A stretch of DNA of 64,000 nt from an uncultured virus (IMG/VR IMGVR_UViG_3300037307_000895) (taxonomy: Duplodnaviria; Heunggongvirae; Uroviricota; Caudoviricetes): the IMG/VR virus record IMGVR_UViG_3300037307_000895; one strand, 5' to 3'. The first letter of the stretch is position 1; every line of letters begins with the position of its first letter. Under the pieces are notes generated by a model, which was not told the DNA's origin, made no database searches, and saw only the letters and a program-made list of their open reading frames with translations. Shown piece after piece: positions 1,178 to 41,609 of this stretch. The translations under genes were made by a program, and so were the position numbers.

Positions 1178-1209
1178 TTTGGTGGATTCAAAAAGTCACC
1201 GTATCTTTG
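1178..1209 (+). promoter_or_regulatory. Bacteroidetes-type promoter of the His/Phe/Trp tRNA operon
   Basis: TTTG-N20-TATCTTTG; near-identical copies at 21323 and 23753. Confidence 0.75.
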
Positions 1210-1242
1210 TGAAACAAATAAACAAATAAAAATATAATAGTC

Positions 1243-1341
1243 ATGTCATACGTTAGCAAACATAAACATTTTAGTAAGTTCCATTTTTGGTTTATCACCA
1301 AGAGTTCAGGAGCTATTGCTGATTTGTTTTATGACGAATAA
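1243..1341 (+). CDS. attenuator leader peptide (His/Phe/Trp-rich)
   Basis: MSYVSKHKHFSKFHFWFITKSSGAIADLFYDE; contains GAGTTCAGG complementary to the terminator 5' arm. Confidence 0.8.
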   Translation: MSYVSKHKHFSKFHFWFITKSSGAIADLFYDE

Positions 1342-1366
1342 CGTGATTTAACAAAAGTAATAGGTG

Positions 1367-1398
1367 AAACCCTGAACTCAAAAAGTTCAGGGTTTTTT
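1367..1398 (+). terminator. intrinsic terminator (attenuator)
   Basis: AAACCCTGAACT-caaaa-AGTTCAGGGTTT then T tract. Confidence 0.85.
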
Positions 1399-1409
1399 AT
1401 TGCTAAATT

Positions 1410-2921: not shown

Positions 2922-3275
2922 ATGAAAATTAGAAAGGTATTTGAGTTAGTAGATTATGAGGAAGTAGATTTATGGAGACCGATAGGACAATATTGGAAAA
3001 CTAATGAAATGGATTCCGTGGAAATAAAAAAATTGTGTAAAATTTTTCCACAATTAAGAAAGCCACATGAAAATGAAAAAGGGTTTACGGTTAAAACTAA
3101 ACTCATTTATGATAGTAAGGATGGTAGAGTGGATATAGATATATTAAAAAATGATGATGAATGGTTTTTTGTTAAGGTTATAAAAGGTGATGTGTTATAT
3201 GGTAAAACAAATTACTATAAATGTGACCAATTTGAAGGATTAATAAAATTAATAAAAGAAAAAATTATAAAATGA
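2922..3275 (+). CDS. hypothetical phage protein
   Basis: N-terminus MKIRKVFE; C-terminal YYKCDQFEGL; TAATATATA upstream. Confidence 0.6.
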   Translation: MKIRKVFELVDYEEVDLWRPIGQYWKTNEMDSVEIKKLCKIFPQLRKPHENEKGFTVKTKLIYDSKDGRVDIDILKNDDEWFFVKVIKGDVLYGKTNYYKCDQFEGLIKLIKEKIIK

Positions 3276-3331
3276 CAAACATTAAAAACATAAAGAAAAC
3301 TAAAAAACGAATACGAGTGGTTCGATGGTAA
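3272..3331 (+). CDS. attenuator leader peptide (Lys-rich)
   Basis: MTNIKNIKKTKKRIRVVRW; ATGA overlap with the upstream stop; GAGTGGTTCG pairs with the terminator arm. Confidence 0.75.
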   Translation: MTNIKNIKKTKKRIRVVRW

Positions 3332-3351
3332 GATATTGCCTAAACGGTAAT

Positions 3352-3389
3352 AACCCGAATCACTCTAAAAAGATGATTCGGGTTTTTTT
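3352..3389 (+). terminator. intrinsic terminator (attenuator)
   Basis: AACCCGAATCA...TGATTCGGGTT plus T tract. Confidence 0.85.
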
Positions 3390-3393
3390 ATTT

Positions 3394-8887: not shown

Positions 8888-8918
8888 TTTGGTATAATTA
8901 AAAAAAGTCGTATCTTTG
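8888..8918 (+). promoter_or_regulatory. Bacteroidetes-type promoter of the Ser/Arg tRNA operon
   Basis: TTTG-N19-TATCTTTG; TAATATATA also at 8941. Confidence 0.75.
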
Positions 8919-8953
8919 TGAAAACAAGAGAATAAAAATATAATATATAAGTT

Positions 8954-9019
8954 ATGAAAATTAGAAATACAAATACAAGTTCGTCACGTAGTTCAAACAG
9001 CTCGAAGATTCGAAGTTGA
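8954..9019 (+). CDS. attenuator leader peptide (Ser/Arg-rich)
   Basis: MKIRNTNTSSSRSSNSSKIRS; AGATTCGA complementary to the terminator arm. Confidence 0.8.
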   Translation: MKIRNTNTSSSRSSNSSKIRS

Positions 9020-9046
9020 TTGTATTTTCATTGCCTATACAATATT

Positions 9047-9079
9047 AAAACCTCGAATCTAAAAAATTCGAGGTTTTTT
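9047..9079 (+). terminator. intrinsic terminator (attenuator)
   Basis: AAAACCTCGAAT...ATTCGAGGTTTT plus T tract. Confidence 0.85.
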
Positions 9080-9090
9080 GTTTTTTATAC

Positions 9091-12949: not shown

Positions 12950-13605
12950 AATCATATCCGAAAATAGAACATTATAATAAGGCTCCCTTTGGAGAACATT
13001 GCTATGCCTTCTACAAACATGATGGTTCTAACTTCCGTGCTGAGTGGGGTAGAAAAAGAGGTTGGTATAAATGGGGTACAAGAAATGTAATGATTGATAA
13101 AAATACTCCTTTTTATGGAGAAGCTATTGATATCTTTTTGAATAAATATGGTCAAAATTTAGATGATGTATTCAGAATTGAATATCCTAAAGTTGATAGT
13201 TTTGTTGTCTTTGGTGAATTTTTAGGTCCGAATTCTTTCGCTGGCAAACACGTTGAAACTGATAATATGGATGTAATTATATTTGATGTTAATCAACACA
13301 AAAGAGGTTTCTTACCACCTAAAGAATTCATTGAAAATTTTGGTCATCTTGATATTCCTAAAATTATCTATCAAGGAGAATACAACCACGAATTAATCAA
13401 AAAGGTAAAAGCCAACCAATTTGGATTAGAAGAAGGTGTAGTCTGTAAAGGTGTGATTAAAACGAAAAAAGAAGGTGAAGTTGTTTGGATGAATAAAATA
13501 AAAACCAATCAATGGATCGAAAAAGTAAAAATATTGTATGGTGAGAAGGCACTGATTGAAGAATTCAATAGTGACTCTAAAATATTAAAAGAATATGAAT
13601 ACTAA
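12946..13605 (+). CDS. ATP-dependent RNA ligase-like nucleotidyltransferase
   Basis: Motif I KHDGSN, FGEF, IFDV, EEGVVCK, KIK. Confidence 0.75.
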   Translation: MKSYPKIEHYNKAPFGEHCYAFYKHDGSNFRAEWGRKRGWYKWGTRNVMIDKNTPFYGEAIDIFLNKYGQNLDDVFRIEYPKVDSFVVFGEFLGPNSFAGKHVETDNMDVIIFDVNQHKRGFLPPKEFIENFGHLDIPKIIYQGEYNHELIKKVKANQFGLEEGVVCKGVIKTKKEGEVVWMNKIKTNQWIEKVKILYGEKALIEEFNSDSKILKEYEY

Positions 13606-14320
13606 AAAGAGAATATTCAGTTTAAGGGGTATATCACCTGATTATCCAAGAATACCACATTTAGATAAAAAAATATCTAATATGACACACGATGATATTC
13701 TTTCTGATAATTCTATTGTCTATCCCATAGACGGATATGTTCAAGAAAAAATAGATGGTGCTAACTTGGGTGTTTCATGGTATAAAAATGGACCGATTGT
13801 TAGAAATAGAAATAATATCTTAAAGAAAGGTTATTCTAAAATACACACACCTGCAAAAGAGCAATTCAAATCTACATGGAATTGGGTTCATGATAATAGA
13901 AAAGATATTCAAATAATATCTGAAAAATTAATGTCTGAGATAACAATTTACGGCGAGTGGATGATTGCACAACATTCTATTGAATATAATAAACTCCCTG
14001 ATTGGTTTATCGCTTATGATATATGGGTAGTAGAAGATAATAAATTTTTGTCTCCAAAGAAAGTGGAAGAACTACTTTCTAAGACAAACATATCTTATAT
14101 TAAACCACATAAGACAGTATTAAATGATACTAATGATGTGATTAGGTGGTCAGAAATGCCATCTGATTATAGAAATGGTGTTCGTGAGGGAATTGTTATT
14201 AAAACTGTGGAAGGTGATTATATTAAAGATACTTATAAGGTAGTTAATAAGCACTTTGTTCGTAGAGAAGATTTTAATGAAAAATTAATTAGAAATAAAT
14301 TAATAATTAATGATTATTAA
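13595..14320 (+). CDS. ATP-dependent RNA ligase (Rnl2-like)
   Basis: QEKIDGAN, YGEW, AYDI, REGIVIK, YKVVN. Confidence 0.85.
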   Translation: MNTKKRIFSLRGISPDYPRIPHLDKKISNMTHDDILSDNSIVYPIDGYVQEKIDGANLGVSWYKNGPIVRNRNNILKKGYSKIHTPAKEQFKSTWNWVHDNRKDIQIISEKLMSEITIYGEWMIAQHSIEYNKLPDWFIAYDIWVVEDNKFLSPKKVEELLSKTNISYIKPHKTVLNDTNDVIRWSEMPSDYRNGVREGIVIKTVEGDYIKDTYKVVNKHFVRREDFNEKLIRNKLIINDY

Positions 14321-14405: not shown

Positions 14406-15638
14406 TTAGTTTCCTTTTGATGGGAATCTTGTCCAATCTTTTAGCCAATCTACTGAACCAACAGCTCCTTGTGAAATTCCAATAGGCGAGACCCCATTTA
14501 ATGGCCAAGTATCTAAGATTACATTTCCATCTGATAAAGCTTTATTTTTAACATCAGATGATGATATCACACTTGATTTTGATATAAAATTTTGAGTGGG
14601 ATCGAATGATTTAACAACATTATTTTTAAATTGACTAACTCCATCTTTATATGATTGAGCAGTAGCATCACTTTCTAAACTAAAGCTACCTTTCATCCAA
14701 CCAACTACAATTGAATTTTCCATAGTAAATCTAGTTGATCTTCTCCATCTTAATCCTAAATTATGATTTGATAATGATGAAGCATCATTAGGTCCAATTA
14801 AAGTCATATTAATCATCTTTGGATGTGTAATAGGAGTAGCAGAAGATCCTGTTCCGTCATTATCACATTCTACACCATTACCAGCATCTCCATTATCTAC
14901 AAATAATGGATCTCTTTTAGATATAGAATAGGATACGGTCCCAGTATATCCAAAGTCAAAGTCAAAATCATCATCAGCAGTGGCATAAGCAACTAAATTT
15001 TTTACATTAACAGTGCCCCCGAAGAATTCAAAAGCATCATCATTAGCATAAACACTTTGAACATATTCAATTTTGGTTCCTCTACCAACTCCACCTAATG
15101 TTAGAGCGTTTATTTCACTATTTGGAAACGCAGCCACACCAGCATATTCTATTCTAACATATCTCATAATTCCACTATTATCATCATCATCGTTTCCACC
15201 ATATTGTCTACCAACACCACCTTCAATAGTTGGGGTAGTAGTTCTATTGGTTTTTGCCTTTCCTAAAATAATTATCCCACCCCAATCACCAGGACTTCTC
15301 TGACCGACTGGCTTTCCTGAAGTAAAAACGATTGGATTTGATGAAGTTCCTTGTGCATCTATCTTTCCGCCTCTTTCTACACATAAAGCTCCCTTTTCAA
15401 CAACATCACTTTTAATTGTTGTTCCTGGTAATATTACTATTTTACCACCCTCCACTACATAAACATAACCTTTTATTATCCATTCTTTATCAGGAGTAAG
15501 TGTAATAGTATTTGTAATGTTTCCTGTTATAACATTATTAGTAGGAACATTAATTAGTAAGTCATCATTCCCACCCAGTTCTTTTTTACATCCGAAAAGG
15601 AATAAAGTAGATAAAGCTAATAGCGATATTTTTTTCAT
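14406..15638 (-). CDS. Bacteroidetes-type beta-helical lipoprotein paired with a TBDR
   Basis: Lipobox LFGC; GDWGGIIILG, DDAFEFFGG, DDDFDFD motifs. Confidence 0.75.
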   Translation of the reverse strand: MKKISLLALSTLFLFGCKKELGGNDDLLINVPTNNVITGNITNTITLTPDKEWIIKGYVYVVEGGKIVILPGTTIKSDVVEKGALCVERGGKIDAQGTSSNPIVFTSGKPVGQRSPGDWGGIIILGKAKTNRTTTPTIEGGVGRQYGGNDDDDNSGIMRYVRIEYAGVAAFPNSEINALTLGGVGRGTKIEYVQSVYANDDAFEFFGGTVNVKNLVAYATADDDFDFDFGYTGTVSYSISKRDPLFVDNGDAGNGVECDNDGTGSSATPITHPKMINMTLIGPNDASSLSNHNLGLRWRRSTRFTMENSIVVGWMKGSFSLESDATAQSYKDGVSQFKNNVVKSFDPTQNFISKSSVISSSDVKNKALSDGNVILDTWPLNGVSPIGISQGAVGSVDWLKDWTRFPSKGN

Positions 15639-15646: not shown

Positions 15647-18118
15647 TTATTTTATTTTCACATTAAGTGATAGGTTTATAGTTCTTTCTTGGCGATTATT
15701 CATCAAAGGTAATTCTCTATCTTTTTGATAGAACTTCATATTTTGACCTAATATATTTCCAAGTGATAACTTAAATTCAAAATTATTATTTAATTTATAA
15801 ATTGTTGTTATATCAATTATATCTCTTGAATTTTCATAAATATCTGAATATCCCTGAAATCCAACTAATGATATTCTTTCTCCGGTTCTATTATAAGAAA
15901 TGGTTGAAGATAATTTTCTATAATTAAAAGAAGATGCGATATTAATATTATAAGGAGATTGTCCTTGTAAAGGTCTATTTCCAGTTTCGGTTTTAACATT
16001 TGAATAAATTAAAGAAACATTTGAATATAGTGTCATCCATTTAAAAACATTCTTTCTAAAATCTAATTCTCCACCAAATAAAATAGCACTCTTTGAATTT
16101 TTATAACTTAATAATAAATTAGAAGGAACAGATCCAGCATCTACAATCATTTCTATTGGATTGTCGAATTGTTTACCAAATAATCCAAATGAAAATGTTT
16201 CAGAATTACTAATATTCTTCTCCCACTTCATATCAACATTTGAAATATTTGCGATGGTTAAATTAGGATTGCCTATAATTTGTGCATTTCTAACGAAGTC
16301 ATAATAAGTGAAATTAGATATTTCTCTTAATTCTGGTCTAGAAACGCTTCTACTAGCTGAAAATCTTATTTTATTCTTTTCAGTTATCATATATGATAAG
16401 TTAATAGAAGGTAATAATGACGGATAATTATTTTTTACAATAACATCACTACCACCAAAGTCAGAAGTTTCTACTCCGAAAGAATTATATTCAAATCTTA
16501 ACCCACCATTAAACTTCCACTTATTTAAGCTTTTATCATACATTACATAAGAAGACATAGTATAAAAATTAGCAGAATATCTATCGGTATTATTTGTTAT
16601 CTCTTCTAATAAATCTTTAGATTGATATCTAAATACTCTTGCTTGAAAATATCTATTCTTATTTAAATAAGAAACACCTGTTTTAAATCCACGATTTTCA
16701 TAATTTAATGTGCCATTAAATCCACTTTCATACATTGTGCTCCAAAATCTATAACTATCTCTCCAAACAGTACTAAATGTGTCCGTTGTTCCTATAGATC
16801 TCTGTAAAGGATTTATTCTGTAATCTGGTTGATCTCTGGTAATAACATTATATCCTATTGTACCATTGATATTATCTTTTTTGAAATCGATTAGTGAGTT
16901 AAATAATAGTTTATTAACTGTATTAGAAGATTGTAATCTAACATCTTGTAAATTATCATAGTTTTCTCCAGTTCTATTGATAAAGGAATTTTCTGAATTA
17001 TAATTGAATATATTTTTCCAATTTAACTTAATTCCTTTATTATAAGATAAATTTAATAATCCATTAATAGAATAAGATTGAACATAACCAGTGTCATTAT
17101 AATTATATGCCAATTCATTAGGTGAGAAATATTCTAATCTATTGGAATAAATTACAGAATTATTCCTAGAAGAGGATACACTAAATATTGAAGAAACATC
17201 TCCTATTCTTTGTGATCCATTTAAATTCAAATTTAAATTTGGATATGTATTTAAAGAATATGAATTTGGATTTGATATTAAAGTTGTATAAGTCTTTCTA
17301 TCAGAAATGTCAGAAGATTTAAATTTTTGAGTAGAGGGAAAATTATTAGGAAAATTTACTGATTTAACTGATTCAAAATTTTCATTAAATAGTAGATTAT
17401 TAGTCCCTATTAAAGCACTTAAGTTTAAAGAATTTACATATGTTGATTTTGTAGTTAATTGTACTAAACCACCAGAAAAATCTCCCGGCAAATTAGCTGA
17501 TGGTGATTTTATAACAATAACATTATCGATTATTGAATTCGGTATAATGTCATATGAAAAAGTTCTTCTATCTGGCTCAGTTGATGGTAATAATCCCCCA
17601 TCCATCATTGATAAATTATATCTGTCTGCCAATCCTCTAACGACAATAAACTTATCATCTTGAACTGTGATTCCACTAATTCTTCTTAAAGATTCTCCCA
17701 TATTTCTATCCGGAGTCTTTTTTATAGTCTCAATAGAAATACCATCGGATACTGAAGATGAATTTCTAATGGTTGATATAACCGATGTTACTGTTTCTTT
17801 TTTGTATGTACCCTTTACTTCTACAGCATTTAAAGTAGAAACCTTTTTATCCAAATTAAAGATGATTGTAGTATCTGATTTTATGTTTAACACCTGTTTA
17901 AAATCAAAAGTTGAAATGTGTGTTATTGAAATTGTATTTGTTCCTTTTACTAAATTTATTTGGAATTTTCCATTGGAATCTGATAATACATACGATTTAT
18001 TTAAAATAATAGCTGCCCCTTCTAGTGGCTTTCCCTCCGACTCAACTACACCATTCAATACTTGACCTTGTACCAAAAATGAAGTAATTAAAAGCCACAA
18101 TGTTAATAATATTCTCAT
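15647..18118 (-). CDS. TonB-dependent receptor
   Basis: Signal peptide, carboxypeptidase-like N domain, plug (VRGLADRYN), GNPNL, beta-barrel. Confidence 0.9.
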   Translation of the reverse strand: MRILLTLWLLITSFLVQGQVLNGVVESEGKPLEGAAIILNKSYVLSDSNGKFQINLVKGTNTISITHISTFDFKQVLNIKSDTTIIFNLDKKVSTLNAVEVKGTYKKETVTSVISTIRNSSSVSDGISIETIKKTPDRNMGESLRRISGITVQDDKFIVVRGLADRYNLSMMDGGLLPSTEPDRRTFSYDIIPNSIIDNVIVIKSPSANLPGDFSGGLVQLTTKSTYVNSLNLSALIGTNNLLFNENFESVKSVNFPNNFPSTQKFKSSDISDRKTYTTLISNPNSYSLNTYPNLNLNLNGSQRIGDVSSIFSVSSSRNNSVIYSNRLEYFSPNELAYNYNDTGYVQSYSINGLLNLSYNKGIKLNWKNIFNYNSENSFINRTGENYDNLQDVRLQSSNTVNKLLFNSLIDFKKDNINGTIGYNVITRDQPDYRINPLQRSIGTTDTFSTVWRDSYRFWSTMYESGFNGTLNYENRGFKTGVSYLNKNRYFQARVFRYQSKDLLEEITNNTDRYSANFYTMSSYVMYDKSLNKWKFNGGLRFEYNSFGVETSDFGGSDVIVKNNYPSLLPSINLSYMITEKNKIRFSASRSVSRPELREISNFTYYDFVRNAQIIGNPNLTIANISNVDMKWEKNISNSETFSFGLFGKQFDNPIEMIVDAGSVPSNLLLSYKNSKSAILFGGELDFRKNVFKWMTLYSNVSLIYSNVKTETGNRPLQGQSPYNINIASSFNYRKLSSTISYNRTGERISLVGFQGYSDIYENSRDIIDITTIYKLNNNFEFKLSLGNILGQNMKFYQKDRELPLMNNRQERTINLSLNVKIK

Positions 18119-21322: not shown

Positions 21323-21354
21323 TTTGGTGGTTTAAAAAAGTCATCGTATCTTTG
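21323..21354 (+). promoter_or_regulatory. Bacteroidetes-type promoter of the Tyr/Glu tRNA operon
   Basis: TTTG-N20-TATCTTTG. Confidence 0.75.
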
Positions 21355-21372
21355 TGAAACAAAGGAATAAAA

Positions 21373-21468
21373 ATGAACAACAGAATAGAAATATCAGTTA
21401 ACGGAGCTTCTTATGAAGCTTATTATTATGAGGAGGAAACTCGCTCAGTTGAACTGGCATTTCTATAA
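21373..21468 (+). CDS. attenuator leader peptide (Tyr/Glu-rich)
   Basis: MNNRIEISVNGASYEAYYYEEETRSVELAFL; AGTTGAACTGG pairs with the terminator arm. Confidence 0.85.
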   Translation: MNNRIEISVNGASYEAYYYEEETRSVELAFL

Positions 21469-21490
21469 TGTAACAGATAGAAATTCTTAT

Positions 21491-21521
21491 AACCCGGTTC
21501 AACTAATGAACCGGGTTTTTT
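21491..21521 (+). terminator. intrinsic terminator (attenuator)
   Basis: AACCCGGTTCA-actaa-TGAACCGGGTT plus T tract. Confidence 0.88.
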
Positions 21522-21525
21522 ATTT

Positions 21526-21959: not shown

Positions 21960-22044
21960 GTCACGGTATGCAAATTGGTTAAGCGACCAGACTTTCAATC
22001 TGGGAACCGAATGGTTCGTGCGGGTTCGAACCCCGTCCGTGATA
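21960..22044 (+). tRNA. tRNA-Glu(UUC) with long variable arm
   Basis: CCAGA-CTTTCAA-TCTGG; GAACC/GGTTC variable stem. Confidence 0.85.
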
Positions 22045-22051
22045 CTAAAAC

Positions 22052-23454: not shown

Positions 23455-23706
23455 ATGAAACATATTAAAAAATTTAATGAATCTAAATCAGAAAAAGACC
23501 AGTGGTGGGATAATAACTGGGAAAGGTTAATAAAAATTACTGATGAAATTCCATATGAAGACTGGAAAGTATTAATAAAACATAGAAATGATTTTGATGG
23601 AGTTTATAATTCGACCGGAAAACATCAAGCTTTATATTTATTAGATACTTATACTATTGATGAATTAGAGCAAATGATTAATGATTACACTTTTGAAGAT
23701 GATTAA
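23455..23706 (+). CDS. hypothetical protein (MKHIKKFNE start)
   Basis: Internal Met of the tracked ORF matches the shared N-terminal motif. Confidence 0.55.
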   Translation: MKHIKKFNESKSEKDQWWDNNWERLIKITDEIPYEDWKVLIKHRNDFDGVYNSTGKHQALYLLDTYTIDELEQMINDYTFEDD

Positions 23707-23752
23707 AAAATAAACAAAAAGGGAGAATAAAAATATAATATATAGATTTAAA

Positions 23753-23784
23753 TTTGGTGGTTTAAAAAAGTCATCATATCTTTG
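23753..23784 (+). promoter_or_regulatory. Bacteroidetes-type promoter of the Ile/Gly/Ala tRNA operon
   Basis: TTTG-N20-TATCTTTG. Confidence 0.75.
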
Positions 23785-23801
23785 TAAAACAAACATTTAA
23801 A

Positions 23802-23873
23802 ATGAAACAAATTAATAACATATCAGCGATAGCACAAATAGGGGGAGGCGCCGGCGCGTCGTCTTGTGGCTGA
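23802..23873 (+). CDS. attenuator leader peptide (Ile(ATA)/Ala/Gly-rich)
   Basis: MKQINNISAIAQIGGGAGASSCG; TGTGGCTG pairs with CAGTCACA. Confidence 0.8.
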   Translation: MKQINNISAIAQIGGGAGASSCG

Positions 23874-23897
23874 GGTATGTTATTATAAAAGATATAC

Positions 23898-23958
23898 AAA
23901 ACCCAGTCACATCGACTGGGTTTTTAGTTTGAACCCAGTCACGAATGACTGGGTTTTT
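23898..23958 (+). terminator. tandem intrinsic terminators (attenuator)
   Basis: Two copies of AACCCAGTC..GACTGGGTTTTT. Confidence 0.85.
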
Positions 23959-23964
23959 CGATTT

Positions 23965-24047
23965 CGGTAGGTACCGGTGGTGTCTTATACACACTATAAC
24001 CGTAACTGGTATGTTGAAATATGTGGGTTCGAATCCCATCCTACCGA
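23965..24047 (+). tRNA. tRNA-Ile(UAU)-like, rearranged D-arm
   Basis: CGGTAGG/CCTACCG, GGTGT-CTTATAC-ACACT, CGGT/ACCG followed by TAACTGG. Confidence 0.65.
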
Positions 24048-24054
24048 CAAATAA

Positions 24055-24137
24055 GCGGGTATCGTATAATGGAGGCATATGCCAGATTATAGGAGCCTTC
24101 CAAGCTTCGGATGTCGGTTCGATTCCGACTACCCGCT
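24055..24137 (+). tRNA. tRNA-Gly(UCC), enlarged D-loop
   Basis: GCGGGTA/TACCCGC, GAGC-CTTCCAA-GCTT. Confidence 0.8.
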
Positions 24138-24145
24138 CATAATAT

Positions 24146-24222
24146 GGGGGTTGGGACTGCAATGGGGTGGTCACCTGACTTGCAATTAGGAAAACAGACG
24201 GTATCGTTCACCGTAACCTCCA
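24146..24222 (+). tRNA. tRNA-Ala(UGC), variant T-loop
   Basis: G3.U70, CCTGA-CTTGCAA-TTAGG. Confidence 0.75.
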
Positions 24223-24266
24223 CAACATGCCGGATGATCCACCGTTGAATCGCGGTGCCGGCTCCA

Positions 24267-24339
24267 GCGGAAGTAGCTCATTTGGTAGAGCGCGACCTTG
24301 CCAAGGTTGAGGCGGCCGGTTCAAGCCCGGTCTTCCGCT
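24267..24339 (+). tRNA. tRNA-Gly(GCC)
   Basis: CGACC-TTGCCAA-GGTTG. Confidence 0.92.
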
Positions 24340-24425
24340 CAAAAACCAGGAGAGTAAAACCTATACTGAGAATGTTCTGGGTGTGGTTACCTAGTTCAAT
24401 GGTGTAAGTGTAGGGTTCTCCACCT

Positions 24426-24496
24426 GCGAGAGTCGTATAATGGTATTACAGTGGCTTGCCATGTCACAGACGAGGGTTCGATTCCCTTCTCTCGCT
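24426..24496 (+). tRNA. tRNA-Gly(GCC)
   Basis: GTGGC-TTGCCAT-GTCAC. Confidence 0.9.
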
Positions 24497-24556
24497 CTAA
24501 GTTTAGATGAATCCATAAATCGATCAACAGAGGGCGTTGCCTATTCTAAGCTTTAT

Positions 24557-24630
24557 GGGGGTGTAGCTCAGCTGGCTAGAGCACCTGCTTTGCAAGCAGG
24601 GGGTCATCGGTTCGACTCCGTTCACCTCCA
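24557..24630 (+). tRNA. tRNA-Ala(UGC)
   Basis: Canonical, G3.U70. Confidence 0.93.
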
Positions 24631-24741
24631 CTAAACTTTGAAGTAAAGGTGAATGCTTCGGAGGAATCTATTAGAAGGAAACTATATACCACTTCCTTTT
24701 GAGAAATTCAAATTTTTTGATAAAAATTAAAATTTTAAAAA

Positions 24742-25260
24742 ATGAGAAAACTACAAAAAATTTGTATAAATTACGGAGTAAATGGTATTTTAGATAAAAA
24801 TCTAATAGACATATCAATGAATGAGTTGAAATTGATAACTAATCAAACCCCAACAATAACAAGGAGCAAAAAAGACATATCTAATTTCAAACTAAGAAAA
24901 GGAATGGAATTGGGTGTAAAAGTAACTCTGAGAGGTAGGAAAATGTATCAATTTTTAGATCATCTAATAGATTGTTTATTAAATTCATACGAATTTAAAG
25001 GATTAAATGCTAATTCATTTGATAAGCATGGAAATTACTCAATGGGTATTAAAGACCAAAGAATATTTACTGAAATTAATATAGATAATATCAAAAATGT
25101 TAATGGAATGGACATTACATTTGTAACAAACTGTAATAAAAGTGATTCTTTAATTTTACTAAATAAATTAAACCTACCATTTACAGTCGATAGAGAATTC
25201 AATATTACTAAAAGTGATAGAATAATAAAGTTTAATAAAAAATATAAATCAAGTGAGTAA
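24742..25260 (+). CDS. rplE: 50S ribosomal protein uL5 homolog
   Basis: KLQKICINYGV, SKKDISNFKLRKGMELGVKVTLRG, SFDKHGNYSMGIKDQRIFTEI, GMDITFVT. Confidence 0.9.
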   Translation: MRKLQKICINYGVNGILDKNLIDISMNELKLITNQTPTITRSKKDISNFKLRKGMELGVKVTLRGRKMYQFLDHLIDCLLNSYEFKGLNANSFDKHGNYSMGIKDQRIFTEINIDNIKNVNGMDITFVTNCNKSDSLILLNKLNLPFTVDREFNITKSDRIIKFNKKYKSSE

Positions 25261-27520: not shown

Positions 27521-28518
27521 AAAGAAAAGAAAAAATTTGGTTTCTATCACCACCTGTTAGTGTACCGACAGGTGGTATAAATAATTTTTATAGACTGTGT
27601 GATTTAGCAAATGAATTAGGAATTGAATCCTATGTTTTAAGTGTTGGTCCATACTCACATCCAGATCCTTCTAACCTTTCTAAATACTGGAGAAAAGTTG
27701 AAGAAATTGGATTTAGATATGATATGTTTAATAGTCCTCTTATTAGTGATGGTGATATTGTTGTTCAACCAGAAATTTATAATTGGAAACCATTTTTTTC
27801 TGTTCCCGTTAGAAGAGTTACTTACATTCAGAATTGGGCATTAGTTAGTAACCATTCATTTGAAAACCACTATTGGGTCTATAACAACATGACACATCTT
27901 ACTTATTGTATCGAAGCAGTAAGGTGTTCATTTTTAACAGATGATTTTTTGCTGAAAGGAGGAAATATGGAATTAGAAGAAACACGAGGATTTATAGAAT
28001 CTAAAAAAATAAAATGGTCAACAGTTTCACCCTATTTTAATAAAGAAGATTTCAAAATATCTACTAAGGATATCGATATAGTAATGTTTCCGAGAAAATC
28101 GCCACAGTTAGCTGAAATGGCTAAAAGTCATTTTGGTGATAAATTGATGTTGGTTGATGGTGTATCTCCGGAAGAAGTAAAAGAGATTATAAGTCGTGCA
28201 AAGATTGTAATTTTACCATCAGCAGCAGAAGGATTGTGTTTCCCAGCAATAGAGGCTATATTATCAGGCACCGTTGTTGCAACATGGAATTGTGGAGCTC
28301 CTGAAGATTATATCATTGATGGTTATACAGGAATATTATCAGAATATGGTAATATGAATCAATTGATTAATAAAGTAGAAAATGTTTTGAATGGTGGAGT
28401 AGAAAATATAACCAAAAATGCTTATGAACTAATAACAGGATGGTACAATAAAGAAAATGCTAAAAGAGAATTATTGGTAAGTTATTTCTCTACTTTATCA
28501 ACAAAACCAGAATATTAA
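27508..28518 (+). CDS. glycosyltransferase family 4
   Basis: PTGGINNFY; LPSAAEGLCFPAIEA; IIDGYTG. Confidence 0.8.
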   Translation: MDNVKRKEKIWFLSPPVSVPTGGINNFYRLCDLANELGIESYVLSVGPYSHPDPSNLSKYWRKVEEIGFRYDMFNSPLISDGDIVVQPEIYNWKPFFSVPVRRVTYIQNWALVSNHSFENHYWVYNNMTHLTYCIEAVRCSFLTDDFLLKGGNMELEETRGFIESKKIKWSTVSPYFNKEDFKISTKDIDIVMFPRKSPQLAEMAKSHFGDKLMLVDGVSPEEVKEIISRAKIVILPSAAEGLCFPAIEAILSGTVVATWNCGAPEDYIIDGYTGILSEYGNMNQLINKVENVLNGGVENITKNAYELITGWYNKENAKRELLVSYFSTLSTKPEY

Positions 28519-30182: not shown

Positions 30183-30995
30183 ATGTATATGAAACAGAAA
30201 GACTCACTTGGCGATCGTATGAAATTTTACGAATCGCAAACCTGTGTGGAAAGATTACTTCCACTAATTCCAATTGTTGCCAGACTTGATGGTAAAGGAT
30301 TTTCTAAATTCACTAAAGGTTTGAAAAGACCTTATGATGAAAGACTGTCTAATCTGATGGTTGAAACCACTAAATACTTGGTTAAAGAAACCAACGCAAA
30401 CTGTGGTTATACTCAATCTGATGAAATTACTCTTGTTTGGTATTCTGAAGATCTCGAATCTCAAGTTTACTTCGATGGTAGAATTATGAAGATGGTTTCA
30501 GACCTAGCATCTATGTGCTCTGTCTTTTTCAACTCTAAACTGCCAGAATATCTTCCTGAAAAGTCAGATAAACTTCCAAGATTCGATTGTAGAGTATTCA
30601 GTGTTCCAACTCTAACTGAAGCAGTTAATGCTTTTTATTGGAGAGAAAAAGATGCTACCAAGAACTCTATTTCCATGTCTGCTCAATCTTTTTATTCTCA
30701 CAAGGAATTGATGAATAAAAACAGTGGTGAAAAACAAGAAATGCTTTTTCAAAAAGGTGTTAATTGGAATGATTATCCTTCTTTCTTCAAAAGAGGAACT
30801 TATGTTCAACGAAAGAGAGTGTTGACTAAATTTAGCGACGAAGAACTATCTAAACTTCCACCTAAACACAATGCTAGAAAAGATCCTGATTTTGTTGTTG
30901 AAAGATGGGTTATTGATAGAGTAAATCTACCACCACTATCAAAAATTAAGAATCAAGTAGATGTAATCATCTATGGAAAAGATCCGATTGAATAG
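30183..30995 (+). CDS. thg1: tRNA-His guanylyltransferase / Thg1-like protein
   Basis: ARLDGKGFSKFT, YTQSDEITL, FDGR..K, FDCR, WREKDA.KNS. Confidence 0.92.
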   Translation: MYMKQKDSLGDRMKFYESQTCVERLLPLIPIVARLDGKGFSKFTKGLKRPYDERLSNLMVETTKYLVKETNANCGYTQSDEITLVWYSEDLESQVYFDGRIMKMVSDLASMCSVFFNSKLPEYLPEKSDKLPRFDCRVFSVPTLTEAVNAFYWREKDATKNSISMSAQSFYSHKELMNKNSGEKQEMLFQKGVNWNDYPSFFKRGTYVQRKRVLTKFSDEELSKLPPKHNARKDPDFVVERWVIDRVNLPPLSKIKNQVDVIIYGKDPIE

Positions 30996-32568: not shown

Positions 32569-33333
32569 ATGACTATCTTTTTGGGAGACATACATGGAAA
32601 TTTTAAATACGTCAAATGGGCTATTCAAAATAGAAAATTGACGAATTGTAATATTGTGCAAGTTGGTGACTTTGGAATTGGAACTTTACCAGAGTACGAT
32701 GAGGATATTTTAGTGAGGTTTAATGAATTTCTCACAGAACATAATGTCACTATGTATGTAATTCGTGGAAATCACGATGACCCCAAATTCTTCAAGGGAA
32801 ATCATATATTCAGTCATTTAAAATTATTACCGGATTACACACAATTAGAGATTGATGGATATAATTTTCTATTCGTTGGAGGCGCCGTTTCTATTGACAG
32901 AAATTTTAGTTTAGAAAAAATGCAAATATCTGCTAGCTACGGTCAAAATAGACCTCTCTATTGGTTTGATGAAGTCTTTGTATTAGATGAAGAAAAAATC
33001 AAAAATATCAAGGGTGTAGATATCATTGTTACACACACTGCGCCTGAATGGTGTCATCCTGATAATAGAAATGGTCTCGGTGATTTTGTGATGGAGTTTG
33101 TGTATAACGACAGACAACTAGAAACAGATTTATTAGAAGAAAGAAAATTGGTTAGTAAAATGTTTAATATGTTAAAGGAAAATGGAAACCAAATTAAAAA
33201 ACATTATTATGGACATTTTCATAGAAGTGAAGTTACACTAAATGGAATGACTGAACACATTTTACTTGGAATCAATGAAATGAGAACTCTTGAAGATAGA
33301 AATGATGATTATTATGAAAAACTATTTAACTAA
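32569..33333 (+). CDS. calcineurin-like metallophosphoesterase
   Basis: GDIHG, GDFG, RGNHD, THTAP, GHFH. Confidence 0.9.
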   Translation: MTIFLGDIHGNFKYVKWAIQNRKLTNCNIVQVGDFGIGTLPEYDEDILVRFNEFLTEHNVTMYVIRGNHDDPKFFKGNHIFSHLKLLPDYTQLEIDGYNFLFVGGAVSIDRNFSLEKMQISASYGQNRPLYWFDEVFVLDEEKIKNIKGVDIIVTHTAPEWCHPDNRNGLGDFVMEFVYNDRQLETDLLEERKLVSKMFNMLKENGNQIKKHYYGHFHRSEVTLNGMTEHILLGINEMRTLEDRNDDYYEKLFN

Positions 33334-33338: not shown

Positions 33339-33545
33339 ATGAATACAGATTTTAAACAAGACCAAAAAGTGTCTTATGACTATGGTATTATCAAAGGTAC
33401 CGGAAAGGTTGTTGGTATAGCATCAAACGGAGTTCCGTTAGTTGGAAAAACCTATATCATTGAACCTGATGTTGCATTTAATAATGAAGTGTATCCTTAC
33501 ACACATTTTGTTTGTCCCGAATTATACTTAACTACTATTAATTGA
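33339..33545 (+). CDS. hypothetical protein
   Basis: ORF track. Confidence 0.5.
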   Translation: MNTDFKQDQKVSYDYGIIKGTGKVVGIASNGVPLVGKTYIIEPDVAFNNEVYPYTHFVCPELYLTTIN

Positions 33546-33551: not shown

Positions 33552-35483
33552 ATGAGGAAAATTATTTTATCTATTTTCACATTAATTTCTATCAGTACAT
33601 ACTCACAAACAGATACATCTAAAGTTGTTCAACTTGAAAATGTATCTGTTATGGGTATTAGAAGTGATAGAAAAACTCCAATATCTCAAAAAATAGTAAC
33701 CAAAAAACAAATTGAAAGAACCTATCAAGGTCAAGAAGTACCTATTCTTATAATGGAAAAAACTCCATCTGTTACATCATATATGGATGGTGGTCACCCA
33801 CAAGGATATACATACTTTAGGCTACGTGGTATTGACCAAACAAGGATTAATATGACACTTGATGGGGTTCCATTAAATGAACCCGAAGATCAAGGTGTTT
33901 ATACATCTAATTATCCAGGATTCACAAACTTTATTCAATCAATGCAAGTTCAAAGGGGAGTTGGTACTTCTACTAATGGTGTTGCGTCATATGGGGGTTC
34001 AATAAATTTTGTTACTAAATCAGGTTTTGAAAAAGAATCTGAAATTGCATTAGGATATGGATCTTTTAATACTATGAGATTCAATTTCTCAAATGGAACA
34101 GGTTTAAGTAAAAAGAATTTTGCTCTTTACACCAATTTATCTCTATATCAAACTGATGGGTATAGGTATAATTCTGGTGGAGATGGTGGATCTATATTTA
34201 TTAGTGGAGGTAAATATGGTGACAAAGATATCATTAAATTTTCTGCATTTAGTGGCATATCAAGAAACGGAATGGCTTGGCTTGGTGTATCTGAGGAAGA
34301 TATAAAAATAGATAAAAAAACAAATTATAATCAAAATGATGCTTGGGATGATTTTAGACAAACATTTACTCAAGGGAAATGGATAAGGAAAATAAATAGT
34401 AAAAGTAAATTCTCTACTGGATTATTTTATAATCGTTTAGACGGTTCTTATGACTATTTCATGAGTGGAAATCGATCTTTGTTTTTAGGATCCAACTTCT
34501 TTGGTTTAATCAATAATTATCAGTATAAAAGTAAAAACTTTAAATTTGATGCGGGGTTAAATATAAATACATATAATCGTGATCACAAAAATATTGAAGC
34601 CGACTATAAAAATAAAGGATTTAGAAATGAATTAAGCATTTTTTCTAAATTAAGTTATGATATTAGTAAATTTACTCTATTTACGGATCTTCAATATAGA
34701 TATAGTGATTTTTCATATGAAGGTGATGTCTCAATGGACAAACTAAAGTGGAATTTCTTTAATCCTAAATTCGGCATAGTTTATAATAAAAATAGTTATA
34801 TGAACTATTATTTTTCTATTGGAAAAACAGGTAGAGAACCAACCAGAACAAACTTATTTGGTGGATCAGATAATTTAACAACTTTAGAAAATGTATCACC
34901 CGAATCAGTAATCGATTATGAATTGGGCTTTAATAGGCGTCTGGAAAAATCGAATATACAAGCCAACTTATATTATATGGATTTCGAAAATGAAATAACT
35001 TTATTAGGTGCTATAGGAACTAATTCGCTACCTTTGATGACAAATGTTAGTAAAAGTTTTAGAAGTGGGATTGAACTGGATTATACAAGAACATCTGCTT
35101 TTGATATCATGTCAACCACTACAACTATAAACTACTCATTTAATAGAATTATAGATGGTGATACTAAATTTCAACCTCTATATACACCCGATTTAATAAT
35201 TAGTCAATCACTTGGTTTTAATTTTCATAAAATATTTCTTGAGGGAAACTTTAGATATAATAGCAAATCATATATCAGTTTAGATAATAAATATTCTATT
35301 CCTGACTTTGTAGTATTTGGAGCAAATGTGAGATATGATTATAAAAAATGGTCAGTATTAGGCCAATTAAATAATATTTTTAGTAATAATTACTACACAA
35401 TGGGATATGTAGTTGATAATGTAAAGTACTTATACACCAATGCTCCTGTTAGTTTTTACATAACAATAAAAAGGAAAATATGA
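33552..35483 (+). CDS. TonB-dependent receptor (vitamin/nucleoside uptake type)
   Basis: RLRGIDQTRINMTLDGVPLNEPE, QVQRGVGTSTNG plug; adjacent to pnuC. Confidence 0.9.
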   Translation: MRKIILSIFTLISISTYSQTDTSKVVQLENVSVMGIRSDRKTPISQKIVTKKQIERTYQGQEVPILIMEKTPSVTSYMDGGHPQGYTYFRLRGIDQTRINMTLDGVPLNEPEDQGVYTSNYPGFTNFIQSMQVQRGVGTSTNGVASYGGSINFVTKSGFEKESEIALGYGSFNTMRFNFSNGTGLSKKNFALYTNLSLYQTDGYRYNSGGDGGSIFISGGKYGDKDIIKFSAFSGISRNGMAWLGVSEEDIKIDKKTNYNQNDAWDDFRQTFTQGKWIRKINSKSKFSTGLFYNRLDGSYDYFMSGNRSLFLGSNFFGLINNYQYKSKNFKFDAGLNINTYNRDHKNIEADYKNKGFRNELSIFSKLSYDISKFTLFTDLQYRYSDFSYEGDVSMDKLKWNFFNPKFGIVYNKNSYMNYYFSIGKTGREPTRTNLFGGSDNLTTLENVSPESVIDYELGFNRRLEKSNIQANLYYMDFENEITLLGAIGTNSLPLMTNVSKSFRSGIELDYTRTSAFDIMSTTTTINYSFNRIIDGDTKFQPLYTPDLIISQSLGFNFHKIFLEGNFRYNSKSYISLDNKYSIPDFVVFGANVRYDYKKWSVLGQLNNIFSNNYYTMGYVVDNVKYLYTNAPVSFYITIKRKI

Positions 35484-36022
35484 GTTTAATAGAAATAGGA
35501 GCAGTTGTGTTTAGTTTTCTATCAGTCATAATGGCTGTTAAGAGAAGTTTGTCAACATGGATATTTGGAATATTAGGTATAGTATTTTATGGAATATTAT
35601 TCTTTCAAAGAGAGATATTCTCAAATATGTTATTACAAATGATTTTTTTAGTTCAATCATTTGTTGGTTTATATGAGTGGAAAACAAATAGAAATCAGGG
35701 CGAACTTATAGTTACTAAAATGTCAATGAAAGAATGGGTAAGTTATCTTGCTACTCTTAATATACTAATCATAGTTATGTGTCTAATGTTTGAAAAATTA
35801 GATGCCATTACAACATCAGTTAGTCTGATGGCTAATGTTTTATTAATGAATAGAAAATTAGAAAATTGGTTTTTTTGGATAATAGCGGATGTTGTCTATA
35901 TTATAATGTTCATTGAACAAAAATTATATTTGTCATCTGGTTTATATTTTGTATTTTTAATTACTTGTATTTTAGGATATTTCAAATGGAAAAACAAATT
36001 CAATGACAAAAATCTATCATAA
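35480..36022 (+). CDS. pnuC: nicotinamide riboside transporter PnuC
   Basis: Multi-TM; GLYEW, RKLENWFFWIIAD. Confidence 0.88.
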   Translation: MSLIEIGAVVFSFLSVIMAVKRSLSTWIFGILGIVFYGILFFQREIFSNMLLQMIFLVQSFVGLYEWKTNRNQGELIVTKMSMKEWVSYLATLNILIIVMCLMFEKLDAITTSVSLMANVLLMNRKLENWFFWIIADVVYIIMFIEQKLYLSSGLYFVFLITCILGYFKWKNKFNDKNLS

Positions 36023-36281
36023 AGGAAATGTTTGGGAGGTTAAATATTGTAATGAAGAACTAAAAAGTAAAAAAAGTACTTTTCATGCTCTTGTTTATGC
36101 TAAAATGGAAGACTTTGACTTGGAAGAATCAATAGTTTTAGAATATAAGTCTAGATTCTATATATGCTCATCTTTTGGAATAAGAGAATCTATAAGTAAT
36201 GCAGTTGAGTTATATCTAAGTTATTTAGTAGATGAAACAAGGGACATTAAAATTAAATTAATAAATGGTGAAAAAATATAA
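36003..36281 (+). CDS. hypothetical protein with C-terminal tag
   Basis: TRDIKIKLIN. Confidence 0.5.
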   Translation: MTKIYHKGNVWEVKYCNEELKSKKSTFHALVYAKMEDFDLEESIVLEYKSRFYICSSFGIRESISNAVELYLSYLVDETRDIKIKLINGEKI

Positions 36282-38248: not shown

Positions 38249-38725
38249 ATGAAAATATTATTTTTAGATATTGATTCAGTGATGATTGTCCATGATTGGA
38301 ACAAGGCAGATCCTCCATGTGATAAGTTTGGTATGCTTCCATTTACCAAAGAATGTGTAGAAGCTCTAAATGAGATTATTCTAAGGACTGATTGTAAAAT
38401 TGTCCTTAGTTCTGACCACAAACATAATCATGATTTAGAAACTCTGAATCAAATTTTCGTTTCTAACGGTTGTAATGAAGGTCCGATTGATATAACTCCC
38501 ACATCACCACTATACAGAGGTGATAACCTTGATGACGGCAGAGCTCATGAAATTATCATGTGGATAGAAAGAGCCAACTTCAATTTTAAGTGGGTGGCGG
38601 TTGATGATTTATTTTTAGATAAAGGAGAATTTAGAGAAAAAATGAAAAATAATTTTGTTGAAACTCAAAATGGTATCCATCTTGTTAAGGATAAAATAAT
38701 AAAAATATTAAATGATTTACTTTAA
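38249..38725 (+). CDS. HAD-superfamily phosphatase (Swiss-army-knife RNA-repair type)
   Basis: ILFLDIDSV, KIVLSS, WVAVDD. Confidence 0.75.
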   Translation: MKILFLDIDSVMIVHDWNKADPPCDKFGMLPFTKECVEALNEIILRTDCKIVLSSDHKHNHDLETLNQIFVSNGCNEGPIDITPTSPLYRGDNLDDGRAHEIIMWIERANFNFKWVAVDDLFLDKGEFREKMKNNFVETQNGIHLVKDKIIKILNDLL

Positions 38726-41240: not shown

Positions 41241-41272
41241 TTTGGTAGAAATAAAAAAAGTTTCTATCTTTG
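41241..41272 (+). promoter_or_regulatory. Bacteroidetes-type promoter of the large tRNA operon
   Basis: TTTG-N20-TATCTTTG; TAATATATA at ~41316. Confidence 0.75.
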
Positions 41273-41344
41273 TGTAACAAATCTCAAAAAAGATAAAAAG
41301 AGAGATTAAACTTTTAATATATAACAATATATAATAAACTAATT

Positions 41345-41458
41345 ATGAAACTGAATAACAGAAATATGACGATTATGAACCTCAATATGGTGGTGATTAC
41401 ATTATGTAATAGAACCTCATATCCGGGTTTTGCTCATATTCCTGATATTATTGTATAA
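41345..41458 (+). CDS. attenuator leader peptide (Leu/Asn/Arg/Met/Thr/Ile/Val/Cys)
   Basis: MKLNNRNMTIMNLNMVVITLCNRTSYPGFAHIPDIIV; TCCGGGTTT pairs with AGACCCGGA. Confidence 0.8.
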   Translation: MKLNNRNMTIMNLNMVVITLCNRTSYPGFAHIPDIIV

Positions 41459-41479
41459 TAGTTGTTGGAAGTAGTAGTA

Positions 41480-41510
41480 AAGACCCGGAACCAAAAGTTT
41501 CGGGTTTTTT
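41480..41510 (+). terminator. intrinsic terminator (attenuator)
   Basis: AAGACCCGGAAC..GTTTCGGGTTTT plus T tract. Confidence 0.85.
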
Positions 41511-41516
41511 ATTTAT

Positions 41517-41600
41517 GGCTCTGTGGCGAAATTGGTACGCGTCAGACTTAAAATCTGATGGACTGAAAAGTCCGTGTCGGTTCGACCCCGACCAGAGCCA
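41517..41600 (+). tRNA. tRNA-Leu(UAA)
   Basis: TCAGA-CTTAAAA-TCTGA. Confidence 0.92.
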
Positions 41601-41609
41601 CAACAAATT

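Follow-up and report, generated by a model that had tools for sequence, protein, structure and literature searches.

The stretch of DNA analysed here is a window of 64,000 nucleotides (nt) from an uncultured virus of the Caudoviricetes (IMG/VR record IMGVR_UViG_3300037307_000895), and coordinates refer to this window unless another record is named. Its region 23753–23960, which precedes an array of transfer RNA (tRNA) genes for Ile, Gly and Ala, is probably a ribosome-mediated (leader-peptide) transcription attenuator regulating tRNA genes. An attenuator had been proposed in a preliminary description made from the letters alone. That reading is strengthened by an upstream promoter, by frame-specific regulatory codons, by 1:2 and 2:3 pairings in the leader RNA, by conservation in five relatives and by the same design at five other arrays. 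The anatomy of the unit, its codon match, its complementarity and its conservation were computed in the present work.

Organization of the Ile/Gly/Ala unit

Judged from its sequence, the unit appears to have every visible feature by which an attenuator is defined. The elements upstream of the array are the following.

23753..23784, plus strand: putative promoter, a match to the pattern TTTG, about 20 nt, TAnnTTTG
23802..23873, plus strand: leader open reading frame (ORF), 23 codons and a TGA stop codon (23871-23873)
23812..23830, plus strand: region 1, the 5' arm of the 1:2 hairpin, comprising codons 4-9 with the first ATA, taken from the minimum free energy (MFE) fold
23864..23885, plus strand: region 2, in which 23868-23885 pairs with region 1 and 23864-23877 with the 5' arm of the first terminator; it overlaps the stop codon
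23898..23925, plus strand: intrinsic terminator T1 (regions 3 and 4), stem 23898-23908/23914-23924 followed by a T-run
23931..23958, plus strand: intrinsic terminator T2 (regions 5 and 6), stem 23932-23941/23946-23955 followed by a T-run

The promoter pattern, which we take to be the Bacteroidetes promoter consensus, ends 17 nt before the ATG of the leader. A near-identical copy lies at 21323–21354 and similar ones at 1178, 8888 and 41241, each before another tRNA leader and array; an exact promoter scan of viral_contigs gave no match.

The leader at 23802–23873 is a short ORF with a cluster of regulatory codons right behind the promoter. The counts given for it in the preliminary description, three ATA, four Ala and five Gly codons, agree exactly with the codon listing. 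The ATA codons stand at 23820, 23829 and 23838, Ala is encoded by GCG, GCA, GCC and GCG, and Gly by GGG, GGA and three GGC. Gly and Ala together make up 9 of 22 codons against a background of 0.087 (binomial P = 5e-5), and Ile, Gly and Ala 13 of 22 (P = 2e-5); the background for all leaders was the amino-acid usage of the 43 ORFs of at least 150 codons in the window. In these long ORFs GGC, GGG, GCG and GCC are rare, each contributing 6–9% of the Gly or Ala codons, and in the leader they are the codons that are read by the GCC, UCC and UGC anticodons of the array. ATA and ATT account for 48 and 44%, respectively, of the 1181 Ile codons in the same ORFs. The match extends to the level of the codon: three ATA codons in the 23802–23873 leader accompany a UAU loop in its array, whereas the five Ile codons of the leader at 41345–41458 are all ATT and its array has Ile(gat). 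The regulatory codons thus match the regulated product, which is a tRNA and not an amino acid.

The two near-identical tandem terminators of the preliminary description were also found. T1 and T2 are both hairpins followed by T-runs, and the arms of one recur in the other as direct repeats of 11 nt (100% identity) and 17 nt (88%). T1 is flanked by an A-run as well as a T-run and was for that reason assigned to the minus strand in one terminator search; the same hairpin was found on the plus strand. The first tRNA-like gene begins at 23965, 6 nt beyond the T-run of T2, which places the terminators between the leader and the regulated genes. There is no space for a second promoter between T2 and this gene, and the array can therefore be expressed from here only by read-through.

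The leader RNA allows competing pairings. The 1:2 hairpin has a perfect 10-nt core (23813–23822 with 23876–23885), while the antiterminator, a 2:3 duplex, joins 23864–23877 to the 5' arm of T1 and three bases of its loop at −16.3 kcal/mol (RNAduplex), a value equalled in one of 300 dinucleotide shuffles of the upstream RNA. Formation of 2:3 excludes the terminator and formation of 1:2 excludes 2:3; the full-length equilibrium still favours the terminators. The near-identity of T1 and T2 permits a 4:5 hairpin as well, the segment 23914–23922 in the 3' arm of T1 being perfectly complementary to 23932–23940 in the 5' arm of T2. With the 3' arm of the first terminator predicted to pair in this way with the 5' arm of the second, it is plausible that the second terminator sharpens the switch. 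The Gly/Ala codon run is GC-rich and forms a small palindromic hairpin of its own.

No Rfam leader family was found at its gathering threshold in the whole window. The Bacteroid-trp family (RF01692) aligned weakly with 23779–23908 at 23.9 bits, compared with a gathering threshold of 49 (E = 5.5). No covariance-model match to a T-box was obtained in 23700–24700 at E values up to 10, nor in the window at the gathering score, and no other riboswitch family was matched in the region.

The same design at the other arrays of the window

A leader ORF and a canonical terminator precede every multi-tRNA array of the window, making six units. The other five are given below with the number of leader codons that are cognate to the array and the probability of this number.

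1178..1400, plus strand: unit A1; promoter, leader 1243..1341 (His/Phe/Trp-rich; cognate codons 9/31, P = 7.5e-4), terminator at about 1366-1400; array of His, Phe (three), His and Trp at 1597-2183
3272..3393, plus strand: unit A2; leader 3272..3331 (Lys-rich; 5/18, P = 1.5e-2), terminator at about 3351-3393; array of three Lys; no promoter motif of its own found
8888..9082, plus strand: unit A3; promoter, leader 8954..9019 (Ser/Arg-rich; 11/20, P = 1.8e-6), terminator at about 9047-9082; array of Arg and four Ser
21323..21523, plus strand: unit A4; promoter, leader 21373..21468 (Tyr/Glu-rich; 10/30, P = 1.9e-3), terminator at 21491-21523; array of Tyr, Glu, Tyr, Glu and Glu
41241..41514, plus strand: unit A6; promoter, leader 41345..41458 (Leu/Asn/Met/Thr/Ile/Val/Cys-rich; 24/36, P = 7.9e-4), terminator at about 41479-41514; 17-gene array at 41517-43875 with the isotypes Leu, Asn, Ile, Cys, Thr, Val and Met

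No leader was enriched for the array of another unit, and the true pairing of leaders with arrays was the single best of 720 permutations. The enrichment is frame-specific: over the six leaders 72 of 157 codons are cognate in frame, compared with 37 of 157 and 21 of 157 in the shifted frames. Complementarity of the antiterminator type was present in all six leaders (−12.6 to −17.9 kcal/mol, with 0–2 of 300 dinucleotide shuffles as good), and the segment complementary to the 5' terminator arm is in every case located at the 3' end of the leader ORF. The gap from the stop codon to the terminator is 20–34 nt, as it is in the relatives for which the terminator was picked correctly. The first tRNA follows the terminator at a distance of no more than about 10 nt in five of the six units. 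In unit A1 a 59-codon ORF (1413–1592) with no Pfam match lies between the terminator and the array.

Conservation in relatives

The nearest record in the phage collection is that of an uncultured phage of 634,780 bp (LR745206.1, also designated L001), with a Thg1 protein that is 74% identical to that of the window and 78% DNA identity in the Thg1 gene region. Its tRNA arrays are syntenic and six of them have leaders of matching composition. Its Ile/Gly leader is followed by a single terminator and a canonical Ile(tat) gene. A 109-kb IMG/VR contig (G001) also contains six leader–array units, among them a Pro/Asp/Gln array with a leader rich in Gln, Pro and Asp, and its copy of the Ile/Gly/Ala unit likewise has two tandem terminators. 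Six further IMG/VR contigs were found through Thg1, and matched leaders were present in five of them; none was found in L020.

The Ile/Gly/Ala leader was recovered in six copies, those of the window and of five relatives, with 3, 3, 3, 3, 2 and 3 ATA codons. The tandem terminator occurs in the window and G001 copies only, L001, L017, L018 and L019 having one terminator, and in more distant relatives canonical Ile(tat) genes take the place of the UAU gene. Leader composition changes along with the array behind it. In L021 the genes for Tyr, Glu and Gly(tcc) stand in one array (Tyr/Glu/Glu/Gly), the leader of which has many Tyr, Glu, Gly and Ala codons, while L021 and L030 have separate arrays of three Leu genes, each with a Leu-rich leader. 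The true pairing ranked first by permutation in L001 (1/720), G001 (1/720), L017 (1/6) and L021 (1/6); L018, L019 and L030, with fewer than three pairs, were left out of this test.

Among 23 leaders of relatives, 16 had an antiterminator that was equalled by at most 10 of 200 shuffles. A 9-nt core of region 2 is identical in the window, G001 and L001 copies, and its reading frame differs, with a stop codon in the first two and sense codons in L001, which points to conservation of region 2 at the RNA level. In L018 region 2 pairs with terminator loop bases that differ from those of the window copy. A scan for the combined pattern of region 2 and terminator arm returned 12 loci, of which one (L013) is a true relative; the other 11 were rejected as chance matches in unrelated, mostly GC-rich contigs.

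Two further features of the relatives were noted. The leader of the Lys array of LR745206.1 (L001 3137–3197) has only nine codons, four of them Lys, and abuts a 12-bp hairpin without a T-run. ORFs of about 100–140 codons lie between the tRNA genes of homologous arrays (L013 1402–1830; L020 7940–8242 and 9369–9665). One of them is Cys-rich and HNH-like by eye, and these insertions may be homing endonucleases that split the arrays.

Leader-like ORFs in a second huge phage

In LR745208.1 (485 kb, 56% GC) a short ORF stands before each of six of the 12 arrays and is rich in the amino acids of the array concerned: Thr (three genes); Pro/Ala; Leu (five); Tyr/Cys/His; Glu/Asp/Glu; and Arg (three)/Gly (two). 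These ORFs lie at 33234–33290 and 42271–42381 of the segment designated L038 and at 14498–14554, 28304–28399, 30509–30541 and 39897–39986 of L039. A promoter scan placed a sigma-70-like promoter at four of the six. By inspection, no clear terminator of hairpin and T-run was seen at the matched arrays. The same principle may be realised here in a separate lineage or by another mechanism; the finding is offered as a lead only.

Proposed mechanism

The model supposes that the leader is translated, that transcription can terminate at T1 and T2, that the antiterminator is trapped kinetically and that the unusual tRNAs of the array are charged. Transcription would start a few bases after the promoter at 23753–23784 and the 23-codon leader would be translated at once. 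With Ile-tRNA for AUA, Gly-tRNA and Ala-tRNA plentiful, the ribosome would reach the TGA at 23871; this codon is inside region 2, and a ribosome positioned there would therefore block region 2 from the 5' arm of T1. T1 and then T2 would fold, and transcription would end 6–40 nt before the first tRNA gene. If the leader were not translated, region 1 would pair with region 2 and the outcome, termination, would be the same. With charged tRNA scarce, the ribosome would stall on ATA, Gly or Ala codons at 23820–23858, the 1:2 hairpin would melt and the free region 2 could pair with the emerging 5' arm and loop of T1. The 3' arm of T1, thereby released, could then pair with the 5' arm of T2, so that neither terminator would form and the polymerase would enter the array. 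The tandem terminator would fit such a domino of pairings, with 1:2, 3:4 and 5:6 on one side and 2:3 and 4:5 on the other. Since the tRNA product would relieve the stall, the circuit would form a closed negative feedback loop on tRNA supply; the molecule sensed, charged tRNA, is also the product regulated, and the feedback on decoding capacity would thus be direct.

A wider reading, put forward tentatively, is that the genome carries a codon-resolving homeostat of tRNA supply. Blocks of tRNA genes for groups of isoacceptors, two of them with the cognate synthetase, would be switched on by slow ribosomes. The system could in this way detect depletion or cleavage of host tRNAs (by defence nucleases, shut-off or a mismatch in codon usage) and supply replacements that are often odd in shape, the tandem-terminator domino lowering the leak.

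Folding calculations and points against the model

In the MFE structure of each leader transcript of the window a long hairpin across the regulatory codons is followed by the terminator. With the transcript ending at 23913, where the 3' arm of T1 is absent, 2:3 forms unless a ribosome sits on the stop codon. When the ribosome is stalled at 23838, 2:3 persists in the MFE structure at transcript end 23926 and is accompanied by 4:5 at ends 23943 and 23948. Folds in which a ribosome masks the RNA gave an alternative, nested structure in the 23802–23873 leader for the first three codons only. Of the six leaders of the window, five keep their terminators in such masked folds; the exception is the Lys leader, where the number of terminator pairs counted by script falls to 0 of 6 near the stop codon.

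Several results weigh against the attenuation model. The complete terminator is always the equilibrium structure, also in the truncated fold ending at 23960, and the antiterminator is never preferred. Masking a ribosome at every codon of the leader leaves the terminators in place, with 20–21 of 21 pairs for A-sites from codon 4 on. Folding only the RNA downstream of the ribosome forms T1 at every codon, the classing of T2 being confounded by a nested T1/T2 fold. A purely thermodynamic switch was rejected on the grounds that both the masked and the downstream-only folds keep the terminators. As the equilibrium folds do not switch, the decision would have to be a kinetic one, as in the classical attenuators.

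By the coordinates, 6 nt separate the end of the last regulatory codon from region 2, and stalling on the final Gly or Ala codons may place the ribosome over part of region 2. T1 and T2 have 3' arms of identical sequence, and that of T2 can displace the 4:5 hairpin; read-through of T2 is therefore not assured. The invariant codons AAC-ATA-TCA sit in region 1 and could be conserved for pairing instead of decoding. Amino-acid starvation would cause the same stall, and additional tRNA would then be of no help.

The comparative evidence has its own adverse entries. The leader ORFs and array sets on which the enrichment values and permutation ranks are based were chosen by hand from listings. Seven of the 23 leaders of relatives were not better than 5% of shuffles. 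Six of them scored 11–31 of 200, among which are the Ile/Gly/Ala homologues of G001 (17/200) and L019 (11/200), and the 9-codon Lys leader of L001 is without an antiterminator (142/200). In five of the 23 the terminator had been mis-picked automatically and the hairpin was set by hand. A tRNA-Gly(tcc) gene at 30011 of the window has a promoter and no leader, and in LR756501.1 (735 kb) none of seven arrays in the 50 kb examined showed a leader or a terminator.

Alternative explanations

The dominance of the terminators in all equilibrium folds raises the question of whether they are simply constitutive but leaky, insulating or damping a strong promoter, with the ORF irrelevant or untranslated and its codons a coincidence or a by-product of RNA structure. 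The hairpin formed by the GC-rich Gly/Ala run and the position of the conserved ATA codon in region 1 would suit such an explanation. It is nevertheless improbable: in three genomes the true leader–array match ranks first among 720 permutations, it is frame-specific and shifts when the array shifts, and complementarity of the antiterminator type, which insulators would not need, is present in 6/6 leaders of the window and 16/23 of the relatives. In a second alternative the leader is translated and senses the same tRNAs, the output being processing or stability of the precursor, access of Rho or pausing of the polymerase. It would accommodate the six of 12 arrays of LR745208.1 that have matched leaders without an obvious hairpin and T-run, the Lys mini-leader of L001 that abuts a hairpin with neither T-run nor antiterminator, and the failure of the equilibrium folds to favour the antiterminator. 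We consider it unlikely, if somewhat less so than insulation, since every unit of the window has a canonical terminator 20–34 nt past the stop codon together with a complementary segment, which is what the classical mechanism needs.

Uncharged tRNAs might instead bind the leader RNA by codon–anticodon pairing in a T-box-like manner, without a ribosome. In favour, many T-box regulons likewise consist of tRNA-related genes, and the leader does list the codons of its array. Such binding is highly improbable, given that no T-box or other riboswitch family was matched in the region at E up to 10, that the cognate triplets share the frame of the ATG and the stop codon, with much lower numbers in the other two frames, and that a leader names up to seven amino acids, which is impossible for a single specifier loop. 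Ribosome-mediated attenuation is thus retained as the preferred explanation.

The tRNA array behind the leader

The order of the genes in the array is Ile(UAU)-like, Gly(UCC), Ala(UGC)-like, Gly(GCC), Gly(GCC) and Ala(UGC).

23965..24047, plus strand: tRNA-Ile(UAU)-like gene without a normal D-arm, with 20 extra nt between the anticodon arm and the T-arm; 21.5 bits, to the tRNA-Sec model only
24055..24137, plus strand: tRNA-Gly(UCC), with a small hairpin inserted in the D-loop; 27.9 bits
24146..24222, plus strand: tRNA-Ala(UGC)-like gene with a G3:U70 pair and an atypical T-loop; no ARAGORN or Rfam call, read from the sequence
24267..24340, plus strand: tRNA-Gly(GCC); ARAGORN, Rfam 61.6 bits
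24426..24497, plus strand: tRNA-Gly(GCC); ARAGORN, Rfam 60.6 bits
24557..24631, plus strand: tRNA-Ala(UGC); ARAGORN, Rfam 65.9 bits

The composition that had been described beforehand, one Ile(UAU), three Gly and two Ala, was right, and the odd genes are backed by compensatory changes; it needs the amendment that three of the six are non-canonical, only the two Gly(gcc) genes and one Ala(tgc) being called by ARAGORN and Rfam. The Ile(UAU)-like gene falls below the standard of a canonical tRNA (RF00005; four arms and more than 29 bits) and is not called by ARAGORN. Its homologue in G001 reaches 41.3 bits against the tRNA model in an alignment that lacks the D-arm positions and carries an insertion of 22 nt. 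In an alignment of five copies (window, G001, L017, L018 and L019) compensatory changes were found in four of seven acceptor pairs and five of five anticodon-stem pairs. Overall, 98% of the cells pair, compared with 40–50% when the partners are slid, and the acceptor, anticodon and T stems are backed by covariation. The 7-nt anticodon loop, with U33 and UAU at 34–36, is conserved in all five odd copies. The extra segment of 18–20 nt follows an extended anticodon arm, whose 4-bp extension helix is paired in 90% of the cells with two of four pairs covarying. A helix of pseudoknot type joining the 5' linker to the extra segment was considered and not retained: 93% of the cells pair, no double changes occur and it is indistinguishable from the extension helix.

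Compensatory changes relative to the G001 copy were also found in the Gly(UCC) gene, whose homologue scores 28.3 bits, and in the anticodon and T stems of the Ala(UGC)-like gene.

The tRNA-Ile(UAU) had been called rare. This holds for bacteria and not among the phage relatives, since ARAGORN calls canonical Ile(tat) genes in L001, L020, L021 and L030. An encoded UAU anticodon would read AUA without lysidine. The product of the UAU gene may be charged with Ile and so bypass TilS.

Of two spacers within the array, at 24340–24425 (86 nt) and 24497–24556 (60 nt), the former resembles by eye the 5' half of a decayed tRNA gene.

Comparison with known systems

Leader-peptide attenuation is a textbook mechanism, the known targets of which are genes of amino-acid biosynthesis and transport and a few synthetase genes. 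Multivalent attenuators of enterobacteria include ilvGMEDA (Ile/Leu/Val) and thr (Thr/Ile), and further examples are trp, his, leu and pheA. The phage unit resembles them in its promoter, in a short ORF with clustered codons for several amino acids, in the 1:2, 2:3 and 3:4 pairings, in the terminator and in ribosome speed as the signal. It differs in that it would regulate the tRNAs that read its codons, possibly together with a downstream synthetase, and not biosynthetic enzymes. It differs further in its Bacteroidetes-type promoter, in the matching of ATA and ATT to anticodons and, in the 23802 copy, in the tandem terminators. With the pheST attenuator of Escherichia coli and the T-boxes of Gram-positive bacteria it would share control of the translation apparatus by the charging state of tRNA. 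Those systems regulate genes for synthetases, transporters or biosynthesis, however, and T-boxes sense the tRNA directly; we know of no case in which tRNA genes are the product regulated by an attenuator of the pheST type or a T-box. RF01692 is likewise an AT-rich leader-peptide attenuator of Bacteroidetes, with different codons and different regulated genes, and the phage unit is not a member of it.

A tRNA-Ile(UAU) is encoded by phage T4 and Mycoplasma mobile, and D-armless tRNAs occur in mitochondria. The gene at 23965–24047 shares its encoded UAU with the former and the lack of a normal D-arm with mitochondrial tRNA-Ser(AGY); it differs from all of these cases in the extra 18–20 nt past its extended anticodon arm. 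The tRNA-Phe genes of E. coli may have attenuator-like leaders, although no paper describing them turned up in the literature search.

Full-text searches of the literature returned no account of leader-peptide attenuation of tRNA genes. PMC3082878 has 'tRNA operon' once, in another sense, PMC2965389 has no instance for tRNA gene or operon, and the main text of PMC7162821 contains neither 'attenuat' nor 'leader'. What appears new in the present unit is the regulated product, tRNAs that read the leader, together with the codon-level matching and, locally, the tandem terminator and the odd tRNA-Ile(UAU)-like gene.

If the attenuation model is true, expression on demand would account for the ability of large phages to carry dozens of tRNA genes, and the unit would provide a sensor for the depletion of tRNA by host defences. 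The list of codons in a leader would predict the identity of non-canonical tRNA genes missed by standard finders, here the UAU, UCC and UGC genes at 23965–24222. If leaders matched to their arrays also serve a GC-rich huge phage with promoters of the sigma-70 type, the strategy would, on the wider reading given above, have to be old or to have more than one origin.

Neighbouring genes and likely host

The window is AT-rich (24–45% GC per 2-kb bin). Genes near the arrays, and others that bear on the biology of the phage, are as follows.

2196-2915: gene for a protein of 240 amino acids resembling tryptophanyl-tRNA synthetase, below the NCBIfam cut-offs, directly 3' of tRNA-Trp
13595-14317, 38249-38722, 58148-58633 and 30183-30992: genes for an RNA ligase, a HAD-domain protein, a small kinase and Thg1
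15650-18118 (minus strand), 33552-35480, 35480-36019 and 36265-37269: two genes for TonB-dependent receptors, a gene for a nicotinamide mononucleotide (NMN) transporter and a gene for an AAA_28 protein
24742-25257: gene for a homologue of ribosomal protein L5, directly 3' of the Ile/Gly/Ala array (Pfam L5 N- and C-terminal domains, E = 2e-14 and 1e-28)
44190-45404: gene for asparaginyl-tRNA synthetase, at about the NCBIfam cut-off, 3' of the 17-gene array, the leader of which has seven Asn codons

The two synthetase genes may be co-regulated by the same attenuators as the arrays that they follow. A search of viral_contigs gave no relatives of the L5-like protein. The HAD domain is of the type found in 'Swiss Army Knife' RNA repair proteins and the small kinase shows a weak likeness to polynucleotide kinase; together with the RNA ligase and Thg1 they look like a tRNA repair set beside the tRNA arrays. 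One of the two TonB-dependent receptors carries a CarboxypepD_reg domain, and the AAA_28 protein combines the Pfam AAA_28 domain with a weak match to Citrate_ly_lig. The receptors, the transporter and the AAA_28 protein are probably auxiliary host-like genes. The promoter type and the TonB-dependent receptors point to a host among the Bacteroidota. Al-Shayeb et al. (2020; PMC7162821) report a genome of 634 kb from among the phages for which replication in Bacteroidetes is predicted.

Other tRNA genes

ARAGORN called 40 tRNA genes in the window, all on the plus strand and clustered in arrays, and Rfam likewise gave 40 tRNA matches. Three genes with strong Rfam scores have an anticodon loop of 6 nt, one in the window (42711–42783; Rfam 66.1 bits) and two in G001 (33379–33452 and 46157–46230); for these ARAGORN gives a two-base anticodon and no isotype. 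In the window, many tRNAs of isotypes that normally belong to class I (Lys, His, Glu, Asn, Cys, Val, Thr and Met) are 83–95 nt long, examples being those at 3394–3488, 1597–1687 and 21960–22045, Asn at 41794–41879, Cys at 42230–42315, Val at 42404–42491 and Met at 43570–43656, among others. ARAGORN draws the Lys, His and Glu tRNAs with a long variable arm, which is unusual here because such arms are normally limited to Leu, Ser, Tyr and Sec.

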